The notes under the pieces were generated by a model, which saw only the letters and a list, made by a program, of their open reading frames with translations, had not been told where the DNA came from and searched no databases. This document shows positions 1 through 28,091 of a stretch of 40,718 nt of DNA, piece by piece. Positions within the stretch are counted from its first letter, which is position 1. The number at the start of each line of letters is the position of its first letter. Source of the DNA: Thiotrichales bacterium (lineage in GTDB: Bacteria > Pseudomonadota > Gammaproteobacteria > UBA5335 > SLRW01). Both the position numbers and the translations under genes were made by a program. The stretch lies in NCBI GenBank assembly GCA_003567955.1, contig PWYF01000191.1:1-40718 (forward strand), written 5' to 3'.

Positions 1-121
1 CTGTGGTCAGGGCCTTGCCGGGGTTTCAGGCCATAAAGCCCACCACAGAGGACACAGAGATCACGGAGATAAAACATTAGTTCATCTCAGTGTATTCGGT
101 GTGTTCGGTGTATTCGGTGGC
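1..121. repeat. Partial copy of palindromic repeat element C (truncated by window edge), inverted relative to 1584-1693
   Basis: 16-73 matches the reverse complement of 1615-1672 at 52/58 nt by manual alignment. It contains the 9-mer arrays ACCACAGAG-GACACAGAG-ATCACGGAG (42-68) and four (A/G)TTCGGTGT-like units (85-120). Confidence 0.9.
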
Positions 122-132
122 GCTTTAACTAC

Positions 133-169
133 CGCTAAACACACCCCATAGATATCCCGACAAGGCCCC
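133..169 (+). repeat. Direct repeat A, copy 1
   Basis: CGCTAAACACACCCCATAGATATCCCGACAAGGCCCC matches 1973-2009 at 30/37 nt, ungapped. Confidence 0.8.
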
Positions 170-200
170 CACACCCCCTTCTGAAAGCTGTTTGTGATTA

Positions 201-230
201 TTGGCGATAGCATGATATCCGTGATACCGT
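201..230 (+). promoter_or_regulatory. Putative sigma70 promoter of higBA (leaderless)
   Basis: TTGGCG (201-206), 18-nt spacer, TG-n-TACCGT extended -10 (222-230), then 6 nt to the ATG at 237. No Shine-Dalgarno sequence precedes higB. Confidence 0.5.
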
Positions 231-236
231 GTTTCC

Positions 237-530
237 ATGATTACCGGGTTCAGGGACAAGGGCACGGAGGACATCTTTGACGGCCGGGCTTCAAGGCATG
301 CCCGCAAGTCCTGTCCACAAGCGCTTTGGGGCATCGCCAGACGCAAACTTGATTTGCTTGATTCGGTTGAGACCCTCGAGGAGTTAAAATTGCCTCCGGG
401 AAACCGGCTTGAGGCACTTTCCGGTGACCGAAAGGGTCAATACAGCATCCGCATCAATCAGCAGTATCGGCTCTGCTTTCGCTGGGCCACTGCCGGGCCA
501 GAGGCACTAGAAATTACGGATTACCACTAG
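237..530 (+). CDS. higB: Type II toxin, HigB (RelE/ParE superfamily, plasmid maintenance killer-like)
   Basis: 97 aa with the HigB motifs LKLPPGNRLEALSGDRKGQYSIRINQQYRLCFRW and C-terminal EITDYH. The toxin lies upstream of an HTH antitoxin. Confidence 0.95.
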   Translation: MITGFRDKGTEDIFDGRASRHARKSCPQALWGIARRKLDLLDSVETLEELKLPPGNRLEALSGDRKGQYSIRINQQYRLCFRWATAGPEALEITDYH

Positions 531-539
531 AGGTTGATT

Positions 540-848
540 ATGGTTCGCATTCCCGCACAACGCGCCCCCACGCATCCCGGCGAAATGCTGCTGGAGGAAT
601 TCCTGGTGCCCATGGGAATCACCCAGCGCGAGTTGGCTGATGCTATCCACGTGCCTTATCAGCGCGTCAATGAACTGGTGAACCAAAAGCGCGGCATCAC
701 ACCGAGCACTGCGCTGCGCCTGGCGCGTTTTTTCGGCACCTCCGCTGGCTTCTGGCTGAACCTGCAACAGCGCTGGGACTTGTACCGCGCCCAACTGGAA
801 GAAAAAAACGAGCTTCTGACCATCCATCAGCACCAGGAGCCAGCCTGA
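540..848 (+). CDS. higA: Antitoxin HigA (Xre HTH, VapI family)
   Basis: PTHPGEMLLEEFL...GITQRELA...ITPSTALRLARFFGTS..FWLNLQ signature. GAGG at 530-533 favours the ATG at 540 over the track's 534 start. Confidence 0.95.
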   Translation: MVRIPAQRAPTHPGEMLLEEFLVPMGITQRELADAIHVPYQRVNELVNQKRGITPSTALRLARFFGTSAGFWLNLQQRWDLYRAQLEEKNELLTIHQHQEPA

Positions 849-860
849 ACCCATGAAGCC

Positions 861-916
861 GTTGTAAGCGGGATACCTTCCCGCTTTCCCGCTTACAACT
901 CACCCCGAAGGGGTGC
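861..916. repeat. Repeat B, left copy: 39-bp hairpin GTTGTAAGCGGGA...TCCCGCTTACAAC plus mini-hairpin CACCCC-GAA-GGGGTG
   Basis: 861-873 and 887-899 are perfect 13-nt inverted arms. 878-916 is identical (39/39) to 2037-2075, and 869-882 is identical to 2020-2033. It lies between the convergent higA and mazF 3' ends, so it could also act as a bidirectional terminator. Confidence 0.95.
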
Positions 917-1263
917 TACCGCTCAAGGATGAGATCAAGGCCGCTGAAGACCTCTTCGAGCCAGGGTTTGTGCAGCCGCCCCATATGCCCGGTCAGCGTT
1001 GACTTGTCGAGGGTAATGATCTGCGACACATTGGCCACGGAATCACGTGGCAAACCGGTATGCTTTTTTTGCAGCAGCACATTGCCCGGTGCGTCACGCC
1101 ATTTAAGATTGCTGGTCAGAACAATACACACCACCGTGGCGATCCGGCTTCGATTCAGGGCATTACCCTGAACCACCAGCACCGGCCGCCTCAAGCCCGG
1201 CTCTGATCCGGCGGGCTCCTCACTCAGATCAGCCCACCACACATCTCCCTGTGTAATCACCAT
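916..1263 (-). CDS. mazF: Type II toxin, PemK/MazF family endoribonuclease
   Basis: 115 aa with QGDVWWADL..GSEPGLRRPVLVVQ..LTSNL..APGNVLL..GLPRDSVANVSQIITLDK. It overlaps the antitoxin stop (ATGGTGA). Confidence 0.93.
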   Translation of the reverse strand: MVITQGDVWWADLSEEPAGSEPGLRRPVLVVQGNALNRSRIATVVCIVLTSNLKWRDAPGNVLLQKKHTGLPRDSVANVSQIITLDKSTLTGHMGRLHKPWLEEVFSGLDLILER

Positions 1264-1493
1264 TCATCCCTGTCAAACACCCGGCGCGCAGCCCGCCTGT
1301 GGAAGTCGTCATATTCCATGCCGGCTTCTTCGCAGACCCGGTTCATGGTCTCGGTCACATGATCGGGATCATGGCGCTGCAGAAATTCCCTGAGCGCACG
1401 ACTATAAAGCTGACTACGCGAGGTTTGCATACGATGCGCCACGCGATCAGCTTCTTCGTAAATATCGTCCGGCAATGATATGGCTACTTTCAT
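1257..1493 (-). CDS. Ribbon-helix-helix antitoxin (ChpI/MazE-like) cognate to mazF
   Basis: 78 aa with MKVAISLPDDIYEEADRVA..SRSQLYSRALREFL, an RHH pattern, ending in EW. It is coupled directly upstream of mazF. Confidence 0.88.
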   Translation of the reverse strand: MKVAISLPDDIYEEADRVAHRMQTSRSQLYSRALREFLQRHDPDHVTETMNRVCEEAGMEYDDFHRRAARRVFDRDEW

Positions 1494-1528
1494 ACCAAAA
1501 GTATGACCAGATCACCGATTCGGGTCAA
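1490..1528 (-). promoter_or_regulatory. Sigma70 promoter and operator palindrome of the RHH-mazF module
   Basis: The minus strand reads TTGACC (1528-1523), 17 nt, CATACT (1505-1500), 6 nt, ATG. A perfect inverted repeat TCATAC-N5-GTATGA (1490-1506) overlaps the -10 and the start codon. Confidence 0.75.
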
Positions 1529-1583
1529 GGTGTAGTGAAATGTTGTAAGCGGGAAAGCGGGAAAGCTGGAAAGTCGGTTTTTA

Positions 1584-1747
1584 GCCACCGAAGACACCGA
1601 ACACACTGAAATGCTTTATCTCCGTGACCTCTGTGTCCTCTGTGGTTAGCTTTATGGTCTGAAGCCTCGGCACAAGGCATTAATTCACCACAGAGGACAA
1701 AAAGGCTACAGAGACAATCTTTATATCCTTTCGGTGTGTTTGGTGGC
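1584..1747. repeat. Palindromic repeat element C (164 bp, two nested inverted arm pairs)
   Basis: Outer arms 1584-1601 and 1730-1747 match at 16/18. Inner arms 1619-1646 and 1687-1714 match at 23/28. The left arms are 9-mer triplets (CACCGAAnA; CTCTGTGnn). Confidence 0.9.
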
Positions 1748-1782
1748 AATATAAGAGGCGCAAGCAAGGTTTACCGTGTTTT

Positions 1783-1837
1783 CTGGCTTCCCGTCCCCGA
1801 TCCGGAGTCGAGGATGACGTTCCTGCGCGGGAATGAC
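1783..1837. repeat. REP-like hairpin CTGGcTTCCCG...CCTGCGCGGGAATGAC with a second hairpin nested at 1794-1818
   Basis: The outer stem is TTCCCG (1788-1793)/CGGGAA (1828-1833). The inner hairpin is TCCCCGATCCGGAGTCGAGGATGAC. Both end in ATGAC. Confidence 0.7.
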
Positions 1838-1850
1838 ATCTTTCAGGGTG

Positions 1851-1962
1851 AGTTTTCAGTGTTCTGTTTGAAGTTTTCCGACAAAACCCTTCATGCGCTT
1901 CATGAACTTCATGGTTAATATTCTCTGTTTTTCCTTTGCGGATTCGCGGCTTCGCGCGAGAC
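1851..1962. repeat. Three short-period tandem microarrays
   Basis: 7-mer AGTTTTC-AGTGTTC-TGTTTGA-AGTTTTC (1851-1878); 9-mer CTTCATGCG-CTTCATGAA-CTTCATGGT (1889-1915); 8-mer CTTTGCGG-ATTCGCGG-CTTCGCGC (1934-1957). Confidence 0.8.
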
Positions 1963-1972
1963 AAACAACCCA

Positions 1973-2009
1973 CGCCAAATACACCCCACACACATCCCGA
2001 TCAGGCCCC
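1973..2009 (+). repeat. Direct repeat A, copy 2
   Basis: 30/37 identical to 133-169. Confidence 0.8.
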
Positions 2010-2019
2010 AACCACATCA

Positions 2020-2075
2020 CGGGATACCTTCCCACATTCCCGCTTTCCCGCTTACAACTCACCCCGAAGGGGTGC
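2020..2075. repeat. Repeat B, right copy, overlapping the Nudix gene 3' end
   Basis: Identical to 869-916 apart from one extra 8-nt unit ACATTCCC (2034-2041). 2059-2075 encodes the terminal (G)TPSG-stop of the Nudix protein. Confidence 0.95.
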
Positions 2076-3006
2076 CAGTGAAAGCCCTGATCCCCGCCAC
2101 GCCCTGCCCGCCATGTTCGCGGGCCGTTTCAACATCGTCCGGAGTCATGCCGCCCAGGGCATAGACCGGAAACGGTGCGGCTTCAGCCAGCGCGGCGAAG
2201 CCATCCCACCCCAGTGGCGCCCGATCCGGATGCGAAGGCGTGGCCCGCACCGGCGAGAGCACAGCAAAGTCCACCGGCAGGCGGGCGGCCAGGGCGAGTT
2301 CGTCGGCATCGTGACATGAAGCGCCCAGCCAGCCACGCAGACCGGCCGGTCGCCGCCGCAAGCGCCGCAGTCGGCGAACGTTCAGGTGCGCCCCGTCAAA
2401 GCCCAGCCGCGCGGCCAGCGAGGGCGGACCATTGAGCACCACTGGCACCCCGGCAGCACGGGCTACATCACGCATCGCCCGCAACCAGTCGGTGTCGCGT
2501 AATTGCGCCGGCGACGGGCGCAGCTGCACCAGCGCCGGGGCTGCCGACTGCAGCAAGCGGGCGAAAGCTTCCGGTCCGGTGAGATCCGCCGGGGTAATGG
2601 GCAGGCAGTCCGGCAGGCACAATGCGTTCACAATGGGCCCGTTGGCCGGGAGTATGCGCTGCCCTGACAGTTGCCCGGGTTCAAGCCACTGGAGTTGCTG
2701 TCCCTCAAGCGGCCGGGGCTCGCCGTCAAAAGCTGCCACCTCATGCACATCAAGCAGCACGCGGCGATCAGGGTAGGTATAGGGGATACGGATCAACGGG
2801 CGCAGGGCGCCATGCACCTGGATGCCAAGCTCTTCAGCAAGCTCGCGCGCCAGCGCGGTGGTTATGCTCTCGCCCGGCGCCACCTTACCGCCGGGGAATT
2901 CCATGTAGCCGGCCATGTGACGGCCCTCGGGCCGGCGGGCGACCAGCACCCGGCCGCATGTATCGCGCAGGATCCCTACCGCCACGTGCAACAGCGGCCC
3001 GGTCAT
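2059..3006 (-). CDS. mutT: Nudix hydrolase (MutT-like 8-oxo-dGTP diphosphatase) fused to a thiamine-phosphate-synthase-like domain
   Basis: Nudix box GGKVAPGESITTALARELAEELGI and the ThiE-like C-terminal motifs GASCH..VLSPV..T.SHP..VYALGG. It occupies the usual position after secA-argJ. Confidence 0.88.
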   Translation of the reverse strand: MTGPLLHVAVGILRDTCGRVLVARRPEGRHMAGYMEFPGGKVAPGESITTALARELAEELGIQVHGALRPLIRIPYTYPDRRVLLDVHEVAAFDGEPRPLEGQQLQWLEPGQLSGQRILPANGPIVNALCLPDCLPITPADLTGPEAFARLLQSAAPALVQLRPSPAQLRDTDWLRAMRDVARAAGVPVVLNGPPSLAARLGFDGAHLNVRRLRRLRRRPAGLRGWLGASCHDADELALAARLPVDFAVLSPVRATPSHPDRAPLGWDGFAALAEAAPFPVYALGGMTPDDVETAREHGGQGVAGIRAFTGTPSG

Positions 3007-3033
3007 GGGCAGAAGGCAACGCCGGGCCCGGCC

Positions 3034-4251
3034 TCAGGAGCGGTACTCGGCATTGATACGTACGTAGTCATGGCTCAGGTCGCAGGTCCAGAGTTGGGTG
3101 GCCGCCTCACCCCGGCCCAGCTGAATAGTCACACTGATGTCTTCTTCAGCCATCGCCGCCTGGCCGGCCGCCTCGGTGTAGCCGGGCGCAGGTTCACCAC
3201 CGCGCACCAGCGCCACCTCGCCCAGGCTGATATCCACCCCGGTGATATCCAGATCGGCAATCCCGGCGCGGCCCACCGCCGCCAGGATACGGCCCCAGTT
3301 CGGGTCAGCGGCGTAAAAAGCCGTCTTTACCAGCGGCGAATGAGCCACCGCCTCGGCTACGCGACGCGCCTCGGCTTCGCTGGCCGCACCGGTCACATCA
3401 AGCGTGATGAATTTGGTGGCACCCTCGCCGTCACGCACAATCGCCTGTGCCAGGGCCACGCACACTGCCTCTATTGCCCCGGCGAAAGCCTGCCAGCCCG
3501 GACCGTCGGGCACCAGTGGCTCGCCACCGGCCGCGCCCGTGGCCACCAACACGCAGGCGTCATTGGTCGAGGTATCACCGTCCACGCTGATGCGGTTAAA
3601 AGAGCGCTTTGTCACCTCGGCCAGCAGACCCTGCAGATGCGCCTGCGACACGGGCGCATCGGTAGCCACAAAGGCCAGCATGGTGGCCATATCCGGGCGG
3701 ATCATACCGGCGCCCTTGCTGATGCCGGTCACCGTCACCTCAATACCGTTGACCTCGACTCGCGTAGAGGCGCCCTTGGGTCTTGTATCGGTGGTGAGAA
3801 TGGCTTCGGCGGCACCGGCCCAGCCATCTTCATTCAGTGCCGCCACCAGGGCCGGCAGGGCCGCCTCAATACGATCCACCGCCAGCGCCTCGCCGATCAC
3901 CCCGGTGGAAAAAGGCAGCACGGCTTCAGCCGCAACATCCAGTTCACCGGCCAGTGCGGCACAACTGCGCTGGGCCGCGGCAATCCCGGCCTGACCGGTG
4001 CCGGCATTGGCTGAGCCGGTATTGATCAGAAGCGCACGCGGGGACCCCGCCTGCAGGTGCTCACGCGCCACAATGACCGGTGCGGCGCAAAAGGCATTGG
4101 TGGTGAATACGGCTGCCACGCTGCTGCCCTCCGCCATTGCCAGCAGGGCCAGATCACGGCGCCCGGATTTGCGTATACCCGCACTGGCATACGCCAGGCG
4201 CACCCCGGCCACCGGGTGTAATTCGGGCAGCTTCGCCGGGTCCGTGGCCAT
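3034..4251 (-). CDS. argJ: Bifunctional ornithine acetyltransferase/N-acetylglutamate synthase
   Basis: KGAGMIRPDMATML autocleavage motif, DGDTSTND, DPNWGRI and C-terminal YVRINAEYRS. The ATG at 4251 overlaps the secA TGA (TGATG). Confidence 0.96.
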   Translation of the reverse strand: MATDPAKLPELHPVAGVRLAYASAGIRKSGRRDLALLAMAEGSSVAAVFTTNAFCAAPVIVAREHLQAGSPRALLINTGSANAGTGQAGIAAAQRSCAALAGELDVAAEAVLPFSTGVIGEALAVDRIEAALPALVAALNEDGWAGAAEAILTTDTRPKGASTRVEVNGIEVTVTGISKGAGMIRPDMATMLAFVATDAPVSQAHLQGLLAEVTKRSFNRISVDGDTSTNDACVLVATGAAGGEPLVPDGPGWQAFAGAIEAVCVALAQAIVRDGEGATKFITLDVTGAASEAEARRVAEAVAHSPLVKTAFYAADPNWGRILAAVGRAGIADLDITGVDISLGEVALVRGGEPAPGYTEAAGQAAMAEEDISVTIQLGRGEAATQLWTCDLSHDYVRINAEYRS

Positions 4252-6998
4252 CAATTCAGTCGACCGTGGCAGTGTTTGTACTTCTTGCCGGAGCCGCACG
4301 GACAGGGCTCATTGCGCCCCACCTTGCGATCCTGGCGCACGAAGGTCTGCGGTTTTTCGCCGGCCTGGCGCTGCCGGCCCTGCGGGGGCGGCGGCGCACC
4401 GGTATCCGGCGTGGCGCCGGCCGTGGCGGCGGCCGAGGGGCTGGCGGCATGGCGGAAAGTCATGTCCACCGACTGCTGGCGACGCTGTTCCTCAATCGCC
4501 TGCACGTCCTCCTCGGCCCGTAACTGCACTTTCTGCAGCAGAGTAACGGTATCGTGCTTGAGCCGCTCCAGCAGCTCCTCAAACATGCCGAAGGCTTCAC
4601 GCTTGTATTCCTGCTTGGGGTTTTTCTGGGCAAAGCCACGCAGACCGATGCCCTGGCGCAGGTAGTCCATGGCCGCCAGATGCTCGCGCCAGAGGTTGTC
4701 CAGCACATTGAGCATGACTGACTTTTCCAGTTGGCGCATGACCTGCTGACCGACCTTCTCCGACTTTTCCTCGTAGGCCCGGGTCAGCTCCATAAACACC
4801 TTCTGACGCACCCCGGCCTCGTTGAGCATCTCATCTTCTTCCAGCCAGCGGGACACCGGCAGTTCGGCATGGAATTCCTGCTTCAGGGCTTCTTCCAGAC
4901 CCTCCAGGTCCCACTGCTCCTCAATACTGCCGTGCGGCATGAAAGGATCGATCACCTCATCCACCACATCTTCACGAATCGCCTCGATGGTGCCGGAAAT
5001 ATCATCGGCCTCAAGCAATTCGCGACGTTGCTCATAGATCACCTTGCGCTGATCATTGGCGACATCGTCATATTCGAGCAGCTGCTTGCGGATATCGAAG
5101 TTGTGCCCTTCTACCTTGCGCTGGGCGTTCTCGATGGCGCGCGACACCCAGGGGTGCTCAATCGCCTCACCACGCTCCATGCCCATGCGCTGCATCAGAG
5201 ACCCGATCCGGCCCGAACCGAACACACGCAACAGATCGTCTTCCAGTGACAGATAGAAGCGACTGGAGCCAGGGTCGCCCTGACGGCCGGCACGGCCTCG
5301 CAGCTGGTTATCCACCCGCCGTGATTCATGACGCTCGGTGCCGATGATATGCAGGCCACCAGCCTCAATCACCTGGCGGTGGCGCTCGTCCCAGGCCTTG
5401 CGGCGTTCGGCGACGGTGGCCTCGTCCGGATCCTCAAGCTTGCGCAGCTCGGCCTCCAGGTTACCGCCGAGCACGATATCCGTGCCACGGCCGGCCATGT
5501 TGGTGGCGATGGTCACCCGCCCCGGCTGCCCGGCCTGGGCGATGATGTCAGCCTCGCGCTCATGTTGCTTGGCGTTAAGCACCTCATGTGCGATCTTGCG
5601 CTCGTCAAGCTGGCGCGAGAGCATTTCCGAGATTTCGATAGAGGTGGTGCCCACCAGCACGGGCTGGCCGCGCTGCTGGCAATCCACAATATCCTCGATG
5701 ACCGCCTCGTATTTCTCCTCCGCCGTCATGAAAACCTTGTCGCTGAAATCCTCACGCACCATGGGACGATGGGTGGGGATGACCAGCACTTCCAGACCAT
5801 AAATGGTCTGGAATTCATAGGCCTCGGTATCAGCGGTACCGGTCATGCCGGACAACTTGTCGTAAATACGGAAGAAATTCTGGAAGGTGGTGGAGGCCAG
5901 GGTCTGGTTTTCACTCTGGATACTCAGCCCTTCCTTGGCCTCGATCGCCTGGTGCAGGCCCTCGGACCAGCGCCGGCCGGGCATGGTGCGACCGGTGAAT
6001 TCGTCCACGATCACGATCTGGCCATCCCGCACAATGTAGTGCACGTCTTTCTGGAACAGCCGGTGGGCGCGCAGGGCCGCGTTTACGTGCGCCATGATGT
6101 TGAGGTTGGCGGCGTCATACAGGCTCTGGCCTTCTTCCAGAATGCCCGCTTCCGAAAGCATATTCTCGACGTTCTCGTGGCCGGCCTCGGTGAGAAACAC
6201 CTGGCGGTTTTTCTCGTCCACGGTGAAATCACCACCGTCGCCCTCTTCAACCTCTTCGCTCAAGCGGGGCACCAGCTTGTTGATGGTGTTGTACAGCTCG
6301 GTGTTTTCACGGGTGGCACCGGAGATGACAAGCGGCGTACGCGCCTCGTCAATCAGGATGGAGTCCACCTCGTCGACAATGCCAAAGTGCAGTTCACGCT
6401 GGACGCGCTCCTCGATGGATAGCGCCATATTGTCACGCAGGTAGTCAAAGCCGAATTCATTATTGGTGCCGTAGGTGATGTCAGCGCCATAGGCCTCGCG
6501 TTTTTCGTCCCGTTCCTGGCCACCCCGGACCACCCCCACGGTCATACCTAGCGCGGTATAGATCTGGCCCATCCATTCGGCGTCACGACTGGCCAGATAG
6601 TCATTAACCGTAATCAGGTGGACGCCCTTGCCGGGCAGGGCATTGAGATAAGCGGCCAGGGTCGCCACCAGGGTCTTGCCCTCACCGGTTTTCATTTCGG
6701 CAATATGGCCCTCGTGCAAGGCCATACCACCAACCAGCTGCACGTCGAAATGGCGCATGCCCAGGGTACGCCGCCCCGCTTCCCGGACCGCGGCAAAGGC
6801 TTCCGGCAAAAGCGCATCCAGCTTTTCACCCTGGCCCAGTCGTTCACGAAAACGGGCCGTGCACTGGCGCAGATCATCATCGCCAAGTTGCTCGAAATCG
6901 GGCTCCAGCGCATTGATTTTGTCCACCACCCGCCACATGCGTTTCAACACGCGCCGGTTGCGACTGCCCATTATTCTGGTGATCAGATTTGCAATCAT
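4251..6998 (-). CDS. secA: Preprotein translocase ATPase SecA
   Basis: [35 protein letters not shown] and the C-terminal SEC-C motif [19 protein letters not shown]. The ATG at 6998 is preceded by AGGA. Confidence 0.98.
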
Positions 6999-7162
6999 GT
7001 GTCCTGCTTGTCCCGTGTATACCCCGTGTGGCACAGGCTGATGATGCCGACCGTCATGCCACGACTGCCCGACCGGCAACTATAAAGGCCCCGGCCATAA
7101 TTAAAAAGTATCCGCACCAGGGAAAGCGTGATAATAACCAGTCGGAGCACGCCCAAACGACA

Positions 7163-27735: not shown

Positions 27736-28091
27736 AGATGGAAGCCAGCCTGTAAGCCGGGTTCTGTCGGGGACAGTCATTCATCTGGGACGTGCGTCAC
27801 CGCACGCCTCAAGCGACCTACCCGGGAGCAGCGCGGGCCACGCCATTGCTCCCCTATTTGGTCTTGCTCCGGATGGGGTTTACCGTGCCGCGAGCTGTTG
27901 CCAGTCGCGCGGTGCGCTCTTACCGCACCTTTTCACCCTTGCCTGTGCCCGAAGGCCATCGGCGGTATGTTTTCTGTGGCACTTTCCGTGGGCTCACGCC
28001 CCCCAGGGGTTACCTGGCATCCTGCCCTGCGGAGCCCGGACTTTCCTCGACGCCACCGTTCGGCGACGCCGCGACTGCCCGGCCAGCTTCC
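27736..28091 (-). ncRNA. rnpB: RNase P RNA, class A
   Basis: The minus strand has 5' GGAAGCTGGCCGGGCAGTCGC, GAGGAAAGTCCGGGCTC, AGTGCCACAGAAA, GGTAAACCCC and 3' ACAGAACCCGGCTTAC. A TACAAT -10 lies at 28103-28098. It is downstream of rsmI as in E. coli. Confidence 0.97.

Follow-up and report, generated by a model that had tools for sequence, protein, structure and literature searches.

Toxin–antitoxin operons among intergenic mosaic repeats in the yacG/mutT-thiE spacer of an uncultured gammaproteobacterium

Related repeat and cassette systems

It has long been suspected that mosaics of intergenic repeats promote gene exchange, but clear statistics on their cargo are scarce. Neisserial intergenic mosaic elements (NIMEs), in which dRS3 20-mers flank RS elements, are proposed to favour exchange between incoming DNA and the genes that they enclose or adjoin, with a postulated recombinase acting in trans (PMC1797815); minimal mobile elements are named in PMC1538595. 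REP/BIME sequences are described as palindromic extragenic mosaics enriched 3′ of genes and between convergent genes (PMC3333891), the ccdO157 toxin–antitoxin (TA) locus is placed in a REP-containing variable spacer between folA and apaH (PMC3184786), and TIMEs are reported to build mosaic elements with passenger genes (PMC4133298). In chromosomal integrons, TA cassettes are over-represented and penalise the loss of cassettes (PMC13108822). The Xer-dependent dif modules of Acinetobacter plasmids are described as accessory modules bounded by pdif sites, and TA systems are mentioned in connection with them.

The locus described here belongs to an uncultured gammaproteobacterium, the reads of which stem from runs labelled soda or salt lake. 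The window, i.e., the whole stretch of 40,718 nucleotides that was analysed, represents contig C9 of this genome and starts at the first base of the contig. Arrays of heterogeneous short repeats between genes are common to this locus and NIMEs, and the dRS3 pattern was also detected in the host genome (exact ATTCCC-N8-GGGAAT at 16 loci vs. none in two controls). However, the 20-bp sequence that flanks each 50–150 bp unit of NIMEs does not punctuate the window arrays: a dRS3-type 20-mer was not found in positions 1–2200, even with two substitutions allowed. Here, the blocks are 7–10 nt tandem units arranged in nested palindromes with terminator-like ends, and the cargo consists of TA modules instead of surface-protein genes. 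With REP/BIME sequences, the repeats share palindromic extragenic mosaics enriched 3′ of genes and between convergent genes, as well as the presence of RAYT genes, but the elements of this genome are far longer composites of tandem units (up to ~520 nt).

Similarity to MITEs is given by inverted terminal repeats (33 nt, 88% complementary), many copies, nesting, and the lack of a transposase or other coding capacity inside the element, since Pfam yielded no match for the open reading frames (ORFs) within 1542–2058. In contrast to MITEs and TIMEs, neither 1542 nor 2058 shows a target-site duplication, no unit length is fixed (arm-to-arm distances range from 15 nt to more than 1000 nt), and no cognate transposase was found when IS110 and TnpB were searched for in the 92.7%-complete assembly. 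Small promoter-bearing TA units between repeated palindromic sites in direct orientation are also known from integrons and dif modules, whereas positions 1–2200 of the window yielded neither attC-type core pairs nor a dif-like 28-mer, and the two TA operons face opposite ways. Cyanobacterial short tandemly repeated repetitive (STRR) heptamers are 7-nt units repeated in tandem between genes, frequently as inverted pairs; the likeness lies in these 7-nt arrays, while unit sequences and phylum differ, and we know of no reported link between STRR heptamers and TA modules.

An earlier note on this DNA had suggested an undescribed system without considering REP/BIME, NIME or MITE fillers, and it is these that the elements look like. 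In our judgement, these are intergenic mosaic repeats related to NIME, REP or MITE sequences, at which TA cassettes have probably come and gone; as terminator-bearing fillers of intergenic DNA they resemble known types, and they form a newly found family.

Genes and repeats of the window

The array comprises the following features:

1–121, no strand: C1, truncated by the contig start and comprising one arm and the loop of a nested c/g palindrome (repeat comparison)
133–190, plus strand: A1 (core ATCCCGACAAGGCC at 154–167) with one degenerate CTGAAA tail unit, toward the 5′ end of higB (repeat search)
237–530, plus strand: higB toxin gene (PF05015, HigB-like, 62.8 bits)
540–848, plus strand: higA antitoxin gene (PF01381, HTH_3, 41.6 bits)
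861–899, no strand: B1 hairpin (13-bp stem), two k-type tails back to back (GTTGTAAGCGGGA ... TCCCGCTTACAAC)
874–1554, no strand: mazEF segment of 681 nt, with the 13-nt direct repeat GTTGTAAGCGGGA on each side (861–873 and 1542–1554)
901–915, no strand: GC hairpin CACCCCGAAGGGGTG, located where the higA and mazF stops converge, with a UUCG-type loop on the minus strand (the mazF direction)
916–1263, minus strand: mazF/PemK toxin gene (PF02452, 86.1 bits)
1257–1493, minus strand: putative ribbon–helix–helix (RHH) antitoxin gene (RHH_5, 19.9 bits, below the cut-off of 26)
1542–2058, no strand: composite element of 517 nt with 33-nt inverted ends, 88% complementary (1542–1574 vs. 2026–2058)
Composite element, first half: k tail (1542–1577), C2 palindrome (1584–1747), repeat recurring on other contigs (1781–1837)
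Composite element, second half: GTTTTCA units (~1848–1882), CTTCATG units (1888–1917), TTCGCG units (~1936–1960)
Composite element, right end: A2 (1973–2009), k tail (2020–2058)
2059–3006, minus strand: mutT-thiE-type Nudix fusion (NUDIX/TMP-TENI; NF006530, 357.9 bits), the core gene bounding the array on the right
2060–2075, no strand: GC hairpin identical to the copy at 901–915 (39/39 identity with B1)

Both operons consist of adjacent small genes with matching type II TA family domains, the RHH member, a 78-aa ORF overlapping mazF, being weak; the higBA and mazF identities given in the earlier note hold. The operons point in opposite directions. The earlier note called each module self-promoting; a sigma-70-like promoter was flagged for RHH-mazF at 1528–1500 on the minus strand, which was the only one flagged, and the promoter scan returned none for higBA. 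The GC content of higB is 0.554, vs. 0.66–0.69 for argJ and mutT-thiE, and its codon score is 0.3. Orthologues of mutT-thiE were identified in 29 out of 30 relatives searched (30/31 genomes, counting the host itself), in agreement with the claim that the array abuts a core gene. In our best explanation, held as a whole with moderate confidence, higBA and RHH-mazF represent two ordinary, horizontally acquired type II TA operons between the core genes yacG and mutT-thiE.

Repeat comparison recovered the non-coding elements A, B and C at the positions from which they had been described, and the repeat islands of the window are confined to 90–2073. C1 and C2 proved to be related as proposed, but mainly in inverted orientation (16–78 vs. 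1610–1672, 56/63 identical), the direct match being weaker (41–121 vs. 1686–1747, 53/81). C2 forms a nested palindrome around a 40-nt loop, its outer arms consisting of CACCGAA-type 9-mers and its inner arms of CTCTGTG-type 7-mers. A1 and A2 are identical at 30 of 37 positions, and B1 and B2 show 98% identity over 42 nt (875–916 vs. 2034–2075; 39/39 for 878–916 vs. 2037–2075); the inverted B arms at 878–899 and 1542–1563 match 22/22, as had been claimed. In B1, the left 13 nt of which are the first copy of GTTGTAAGCGGGA, the 13-bp hairpin is followed by a 6-bp GC hairpin (fold z = −6.6 for both together); for the composite element, the fold z is −5.6. Four copies of the GC hairpin were found in the genome, two of them inside the window, and mutT-thiE takes its final five codons and its stop from the copy at 2060–2075 (the ORF ends ...GTPSG). 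A simple scan flagged none of these hairpins as terminator-like.

The repeat family and its association with TA modules

Genome-wide, nested palindromic repeats of 7–10 nt tandem units form 381 islands (59.5 kb) on 173 of the 270 contigs. Pieces of the window repeats recur on 14–27 contigs each, with the exception of A, which was found on 2–5; its core has 62 matches vs. 15 in a reversed-sequence control, and the recurrence of the repeats exceeds what chance would give. Based on gene calls from a crude ORF and codon-score caller, and on a 270-contig assembly in which contigs are broken at repeats, 249 out of 808 intergenic gaps are occupied (85/131 convergent, 35/208 divergent and 129/469 tandem), with a preference for gene 3′ ends. 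Downstream of genes, the repeat flanks consist of a GC hairpin with a UUCG loop and, after it, a GTTnTAnG tail; judging from their sequence, these outward-facing hairpins with T-rich tandem tails look like intrinsic terminators. A new repeat family whose ends resemble portable terminators is documented here.

The recurrent C-A-B order, which the earlier note regarded as a cassette scaffold, does exist, but as the usual internal order of the family: c units lie upstream in 7 of 24 copies of the H-A element, the repeat type containing A (window and six others), giving the order C...A...tail, and the six loci outside the window are mostly near ordinary genes. H-A tails adjoin gene 3′ ends in 15 and non-TA genes in 18 out of 21 cases, and just 32 of the 381 islands have a TA module at a distance of 200 nt or less. 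These values speak against a scaffold dedicated to cassettes; the repeats recur widely and are not private to this locus.

In line with the earlier note, TA modules are strongly over-represented among genes bracketed by repeats. Among Pfam-defined TA modules, 10/18 have repeats within 150 nt on both sides, compared to 51/2064 other genes (p = 8e-12). Small same-strand gene pairs, used as a control, are bracketed in 6/68 cases, five of which turned out to be TA modules and the sixth a split crotonase. For small low-GC non-TA genes (n = 111), the proportions are 3.6% for both sides and 20% for either side, the latter being 75% for the 40 genes in TA modules; GC content and gene size do not account for the enrichment. 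Gaps adjoining TA modules are occupied in 27/36 cases vs. 222/772 for other gaps (p = 3e-8), and direct repeats of at least 12 nt occur in the 200-nt flanks of 11/23 TA modules vs. 24/1662 other genes (p = 6e-14), both counts being biased by the inclusion of five modules that were found via bracketing by repeats. The unbiased set of 18 modules has such repeats in nine (own count; the p-value refers to 23 modules). Two of the eleven direct-repeat cases, both on contig C118, represent attC-type sites, i.e., a separate system. Among bracketed genes, direct repeats were found in 8/15 TA and 7/51 non-TA cases (p = 0.003). Their start-to-start spacing at TA modules is 644–891 nt, and their sequence varies from locus to locus, with no common site. 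Thus, in one genome, a strong and specific signal was obtained: TA modules, and almost nothing else of that size, are boxed by repeats with direct copies.

The reading favoured here, with somewhat more confidence than doubt, is that the stretch is a lineage-specific filling of the convergent yacG/mutT-thiE spacer by TA operons and genome-wide mosaic repeats, with gain and loss through short homologies. Each intergenic gap of the 2-kb stretch appears to be occupied by one copy of the family. The spread of the repeats was most likely that of non-autonomous palindromic elements, which would be tolerated at gene ends as terminators or insulators. With the same modules then present, in direct orientation, to the left and right of a small accessory unit, short homologies are provided for the gain and loss of TA cassettes, which may proceed by homologous or illegitimate recombination or by integration and excision of circles, as suggested by one strain difference and the direct-repeat statistics. 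The over-representation of TA modules would be due in part to their being acquired as small, self-contained units; an addictive module is also likely to resist repeat-promoted deletion, as the analogy of integron TA cassettes suggests, which would add to the enrichment. A dedicated recombinase would not be needed for this process, and none was seen. Should closed genomes bear the pattern out, it would be a tractable case for asking whether mosaic repeats act as recombination substrates and whether addictive modules persist by resisting repeat-mediated deletion, as shown for integron arrays.

It is also possible, though rather unlikely, that no causal link exists, the repeats saturating dispensable intergenic DNA and the TA modules having arrived via integron cassettes, phages or transposons. 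In that case, a pair of direct repeats would be no more than two like-oriented terminators of one family, and the strain difference would stem from diverged strains that recombined in the ordinary way. The overall occupancy of the gaps, particularly the convergent ones, is in line with this, as are core genes such as xerD and dsbC, which are likewise boxed in by repeats, and the attC-type array with TA cassettes on C118, which provides an independent route of TA entry. However, it leaves unexplained the excess occupancy of TA-adjacent gaps, the lack of enrichment for small low-GC non-TA genes, and the lower frequency of direct repeats at bracketed non-TA genes.

Recombination machinery

The cassette exchange postulated in the earlier note relied on an enzyme served in trans; no such enzyme was found. 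The PF00589 search of the genome returned two tyrosine recombinases, scoring as XerD (374 bits) and XerC (370.5 bits). An integron integrase was not detected in the assembly, which is 92.7% complete and may lack such a gene for that reason, the corresponding model giving 127.6 and 131.8 bits for these two at a cut-off of 265. Two REP-associated tyrosine transposases (RAYTs; NF047646, 178 and 187 bits) sit among their own REPs, the heads of which occur 1–7 times, almost only on contig C219, and look unlike A, B or C, so that a match between RAYT and window repeats was not obtained. XerC, XerD and the two RAYTs are the sole candidates for an enzyme; dedicated cassette machinery was not found. 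An IS256-type gene was met by chance on C118.

The attC core consensus is RYYYAAC-N40-130-GTTRRRY. On either strand of positions 1–2200, no such core pair was found with this pattern, which misses variant cores such as those on C118; the B hairpin runs from a 5′ GTT to a 3′ AAC, opposite to the attC arrangement, and the C118 array looks quite unlike that of the window. A dif-like 28-mer (up to six substitutions) or a XerD-arm-like 11-mer (up to two) was likewise not detected in 1–2200, the best dif-like site in the genome, on C73, having three substitutions. The repeat families of the window are irregularly spaced and of mixed orientation, unlike CRISPR. On these three points, the earlier note was right.

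A dedicated system, in which the hairpin-plus-tail repeats would be sites for a trans-acting enzyme (HUH/Y1, e.g., the RAYTs, or another) and TA modules would move as discrete cassettes, possibly circles, without attC sites, is improbable. TA-specific enrichment beyond GC content and gene size, the 644–891 nt spacing of the flanking direct repeats and the two RAYT genes point in its direction. Against it stand direct repeats without a common site, the 349/381 islands that lie away from TA modules, RAYT REPs limited to C219, and the lack of any integrase, IS110 or TnpB hit in the 92.7%-complete assembly. Recent intragenomic copies of TA modules were not found either, paralogues being at most 45% identical. 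Equally doubtful, or a shade more so, is the narrower version in which TA operons, possibly as circles with one repeat copy, enter and leave terminator-like hairpin-plus-tail repeats by means of a trans-acting enzyme that is neither an integron integrase nor Xer. If true, terminator mimics spread over the genome would serve as docking sites for a cassette system that does without attC.

The junction in relatives and in a second strain

In all three family relatives with an assembled locus (G002, G003 and G004), yacG is directly convergent with mutT-thiE and TA genes are absent. The stops are 5 nt apart in G003, and the spacer of G002 and G004 (~190–250 nt) holds only a (GTTTTAG)n...(CTAAAAC)n palindrome. 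The repeat family is present in G001 of the same genus (22 matches) and in G003 of another genus (24), and essentially absent from G002 (one match) and G004 (none). The repeats retain 84–94% identity in G001 and G003, as against just 51% for the MutT-ThiE protein of G003, which would suit a dedicated system. At the ParE loci of G003, read by eye, flanking repeats were found in 0/3 cases, which counts against such a system and agrees with the absence of a causal link.

Through the metagenome contig L073 and contig C138, the left neighbours of the array were identified as yacG, coaE and pilD; as the earlier note had it, no recombinase is found there. L073 shows 98.9% identity over 1499 nt of pilD-coaE-yacG and continues with a tail, the C palindrome, A1 and higBA, followed directly by a tail and a C-type palindrome. 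It lacks mazEF, the window having 681 nt extra bounded by the 13-nt direct repeat, so that one cassette differs between strains with a breakpoint exactly at a repeat; this comparison represents one strain difference, L073 ending inside the palindrome. The variable cargo anticipated for an insertion hotspot was thus observed. The exact breakpoint speaks against an absent causal link, and the repeat-bounded segment would also fit a dedicated system. Because the tail and palindrome of L073 are ~75% identical to window 1575–1663, the difference is not a clean recent insertion or deletion. For recombination of the RecA type, an exact homology of 13 nt is short.

That the array is a chimera from repeat-induced misassembly in a metagenome bin is very improbable. 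It is true that the contig begins inside a palindrome, that its first 121 nt are identical (121/121) to the reverse complement of L073 1652–1772, the left arm, and hence are either a perfect palindrome arm or an assembly fold-back, and that 59/540 contig ends lie within repeat islands. However, the order yacG, palindrome, A1, higBA is the same in the independent metagenome contig L073. Furthermore, contigs from four public runs cover 95–605, 974–1831 (two differences in 858 nt), 1808–2075 and 2037–4000, thereby linking mazF-RHH to C2 and A2-B2 to mutT-thiE.

Layout of the locus and its hairpins

The assembly of the studied Thiotrichales genome (2.32 Mb, 270 contigs, 92.7% complete) carries the locus at the beginning of contig C9, which the window represents from base 1. 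Repeats were restricted to the first 2.1 kb, and positions 7000–40718 featured long, close-packed ORFs and zero repeat islands. A bacterial class A RNase P RNA was also detected (27737–28090, minus strand, 339.6 bits). The features of the first 3 kb are as follows:

1–121: palindrome arm of repeat C1
133–169: repeat A1
237–530: higB
540–848: higA
861–899: repeat B1, a 13-bp hairpin
901–915: GC hairpin, first copy
916–1263, minus strand: mazF
1257–1493, minus strand: RHH antitoxin
1542–2058: composite repeat of 517 nt
2060–2075: GC hairpin, second copy, encoding the final five codons and the stop codon of mutT-thiE
2059–3006: mutT-thiE-type Nudix fusion, with argJ and secA beyond

The earlier note had described three non-coding elements, C, A and B, recurring twice in the same order. 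All of these relations were found to be present, but the kinship of C1 and C2 is chiefly inverted, C2 being a nested palindrome and B a hairpin of two inverted tails. Insertion of higBA into a split element between A1 and B1 was considered and dropped, A1 owning a degenerate tail unit and B1 representing a self-contained hairpin. The composite at 1542–2058 possesses inverted ends of 33 nt and a nested-stem fold (z = −5.6). The hairpin at 2059–2075, forming the coding end of the core gene mutT-thiE, is identical (39/39) to the copy at 878–916. Since the C-terminal codons of mutT-thiE are encoded by a repeat hairpin, the repeat replaced or created this C-terminus.

On the 3' side of stop codons, a GC hairpin whose loop is of the UUCG type is followed by GTTnTAnG-type units, which corresponds to the form of an intrinsic terminator. 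On the 5' side of TA (toxin–antitoxin) operons, the hairpin-tail module is mirrored, with the hairpin located beside the promoter region; thus, the tails always point to the neighbouring gene. Judged from sequence, every gap appears to hold one palindromic composite with terminator-like ends, for which we infer a terminator function. A simple terminator scan flagged none of these hairpins.

The repeat family across the genome

Parts of B, of C and of the C-to-A interval were each found on 14–27 contigs, and A on 2–5 contigs. To delimit stretches of the family, referred to as islands, 12-mers with at least six non-genic copies and at least 70% of their copies outside genes were used; earlier definitions (14-mers merged over 150 nt; 12-mers with at least eight copies) marked GC-rich coding DNA and were replaced. 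In total, 381 islands spanning 59.5 kb were detected on 173 out of the 270 contigs, within the window solely at 90–2073, and 59 of the 540 contig ends lie inside islands. Islands occupied 249 out of 808 intergenic gaps (≥60 nt), namely 85 of 131 convergent, 35 of 208 divergent and 129 of 469 tandem gaps.

The family is composed of tandem units of 7–10 nt, among them TTCGGTG, CTCTGTG, CTTCATG, CTGAAAA, CTTACAAC/TTCCCGCT, ACGTAAYC and AAGACGTCTT. Tandem Repeats Finder at low score was dominated by a 6-nt coding periodicity and was taken only as a sign of many such units. One recurring arrangement, the H-A element, consists of two to four CTTCATG units, GGTTnnnGCTTTTA, about 37 nt, ATCCCGAYCAGGCCCC, about 20 nt, a tandem tail and a GC hairpin, and was found in at least 24 copies. 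A2 and B2 together represent one of them with a longer spacer, because of which the strict pattern matched nothing in the window. A gene boundary lies within 250 nt past the tail in 21 of the 24 copies, 15 of these being 3' ends and 18 belonging to non-TA genes. Units of the c type precede the element in 7 of 24 copies, so that the order C…A…B recurs at six other loci.

A fixed-length MITE family was ruled out, as arm-to-arm distances are widely spread, and an Rfam search returned no family for the repeats, merely sub-threshold miRNA-like hairpin matches. Two tandem RAYT genes (178 and 187 bits) are encoded in a low-GC region of contig C219 (1500–3741), with their own REP doublets between and around them. 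These REPs are nearly absent beyond this contig, and a driving role of the RAYT genes was not supported.

Further elements were observed in the same genome. A classical MITE, about 280 nt long and bearing inverted ends of 26 nt (CTTAAGGAAACGCTGATTAATTCGTC), occurs at many sites, and also in the same-genus relative G001 (contig C79, locus L061, 2290–2570); 14-mers from this MITE rank among the commonest of the studied genome (33–40 copies), and one copy overlaps ORFs of a ParE region on contig C115. The exact neisserial dRS3 pattern ATTCCC-N8-GGGAAT was present at 16 loci (e.g., C261:23463 and C24:524) and at none in two controls. These loci mostly read ATTCCCGCCTGCGCGGGAAT or its complement, a sequence similar to the Neisseria consensus.

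Association of toxin–antitoxin modules with repeats

Even a relaxed gene caller scored higB at 0.3, its first version having missed argJ and higB, so TA modules were placed from Pfam matches. Four toxin families yielded 18 modules (ParE 7, PIN 4, PemK 3, HigB 4). For 10 out of the 18 modules, each flank had an island at a distance of at most 150 nt, compared to 51 out of 2064 other genes (p = 8e-12). Among small same-strand gene pairs serving as control, 6 out of 68 were bracketed in this way; five of the six were TA modules too (three BrnT/CopG, one RelE/HTH and one Gp49/HTH), and the sixth was a split crotonase. The effect is not explained by GC content or size. Gaps adjacent to TA modules contained islands in 27 of 36 cases versus 222 of 772 other gaps, the former count including five modules discovered through bracketing.

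Only 32 of the 381 islands are located near a TA module, so the repeats are not TA-specific, though the modules are repeat-associated. The proposal that the repeats form a scaffold for TA cargo was borne out in part: TA modules are enriched among bracketed genes, but few islands lie near them, and the C…A…B order stands at other loci as well. Two kinds of selfish DNA coinciding, and nothing more, would be a possible but rather unlikely explanation. Exact direct repeats of at least 12 nt within 200-nt flanks were found for 11 of 23 TA modules versus 24 of 1662 other genes, and among bracketed genes alone for 8 of 15 TA versus 7 of 51 non-TA genes. Several of them stretch to about 40–70 nt of imperfect similarity, with a start-to-start spacing of 644–891 nt. 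Against the generality of this feature, two of the 11 cases, both on contig C118, represent attC-type sites, and reading by eye revealed flanking repeats at none of three ParE loci of G003, a relative from another genus.

The studied genome is unusually TA-rich for its family. ParE-family toxins numbered seven, compared to three in G003 and none in each of G001, G002 and G004, G001 being merely 80% complete.

Relatives, strain differences and proposed mode of exchange

The repeat family yielded 22 matches in G001 and 24 in G003, and was essentially absent from G002 (1) and G004 (0). Among approximately 185,000 species genomes, an exact 23-base pattern taken from the H-A element was found in only eight stretches from four MAG records. 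In G003, a convergent yacG follows 5 nt beyond the mutT-thiE stop codon, then coaE and pilD. In G002 and G004, which belong to one genus, the homologous spacer between yacG and mutT-thiE measures about 190–250 nt, is devoid of TA genes, and harbours a (GTTTTAG)n…(CTAAAAC)n palindrome (L160, 1260–1450, and L159, 1690–1870, respectively); elements with tandem-heptamer arms are thus either older here than the TA insertions or of parallel origin.

Contig C138 of the studied genome carries pilD, coaE and yacG, the last cut by the contig start, and an end-overlap search to lengthen the window contig found nothing. The two are joined by L073, a metagenome contig of 2707 nt from another strain, whose bases 1–1499 are 98.9% identical to C138, followed by the yacG end, a k-type tail, the full C palindrome, A1 and higBA (nucleotide identity to the window 97.6% for higB and 92.9% for higA). 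As the earlier note had it, no recombinase is in view, and since yacG-coaE-pilD lie to the left, none is there. Past higA, L073 proceeds at once to a tail and a C-type palindrome; at this junction the window holds 681 extra nt (874–1554), which comprise the other arm of B1, the GC hairpin, mazF, and RHH together with its promoter, and which are bounded by a 13-nt direct repeat (GTTGTAAGCGGGA). Because L073 stops within the palindrome and shares only about 75% identity with the window in the tail and palindrome, the two contigs can be said to differ in structure at a repeat, which falls short of proving a recent excision. The comparison downstream of mutT suggested by the earlier note thus revealed a lineage-specific insertion site of variable content, with no TA genes in G002, G003 or G004, and with higBA but not the mazEF segment in L073.

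Window positions 1–121 are the exact reverse complement of the L073 left arm, indicating either an assembly fold-back or a perfect palindrome. That the arrangement as a whole is an assembly artefact is very improbable: contigs from four public runs independently cover 95–605, 974–1831, 1808–2075 and 2037–4000, which argues against a chimeric assembly. At the joints of these contigs the shorter side is below 30 nt and repeats from elsewhere pile up, making them unusable for excision, inversion or empty-site junctions. When the relatives' loci were searched with the TA proteins of the studied genome, the only matches were to DNA derived from MITEs, apart from one higBA homologue in G002; the surroundings of contigs C201 and C100 share only one 239-aa gene (82%) with G001 and G003, synteny being too poor to define empty sites.

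The best reading, which we favour with modest confidence, is that the gaps are occupied by mosaic repeats of a generic, terminator-like sort (REP/BIME, NIME or MITE kind), and that TA operons, as small acquired cassettes, come and go via recombination at these repeats. The cassettes would probably be kept since an addictive module withstands repeat-mediated deletion, by analogy with integron arrays. In integron arrays, TA cassettes are enriched and penalise cassette loss (PMC13108822), NIME arrays have been proposed to act likewise (PMC1797815), and one TA locus has been described inside a variable spacer that contains REPs (PMC3184786). The literature on TA modules linked to extragenic repeats yielded a ccdO157/REP remark and TIMEs, none resembling the present case, which is no proof of absence in print. 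The kind of arrangement is already known. New are the repeat family, in which tandem units form nested palindromes whose ends look like terminators, the strong and specific association of TA modules with it, and the direct repeats at their flanks.

A dedicated cassette system acting in trans, as proposed in the earlier note from the recurring repeats, appears improbable, and an attC-independent cassette system for TA operons is given slightly less credence still. No tyrosine recombinases besides XerD and XerC were found in the 92.7% complete genome, and no IS110 or TnpB family genes, all these absences being provisional given the incomplete assembly. The statement that the locus is neither integron attC nor pdif held, with neither attC-type nor dif-type sites in window positions 1–2200.

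Contig C118 (locus L164, 1–6188) resembles an integron-type cassette array in a bin without integrase. Its direct repeats of 70–110 nt are located at 313–401, 1037–1127, 1747–1837, 3032–3060, 4446–4513, 5096–5184 and 5652–5742, one of them folding into an R box, spacer, L box and bulged bases (ATAAC…GTTAT). The cassettes encode, among others, Gp49/HI1420-antidote, higBA, antitoxin/ParE, a Phd antitoxin and DUF4160, and the contig also carries an IS256-type (Mutator family) transposase gene. A further copy of the site was detected on contig C39 (L165, about 2390–2480).
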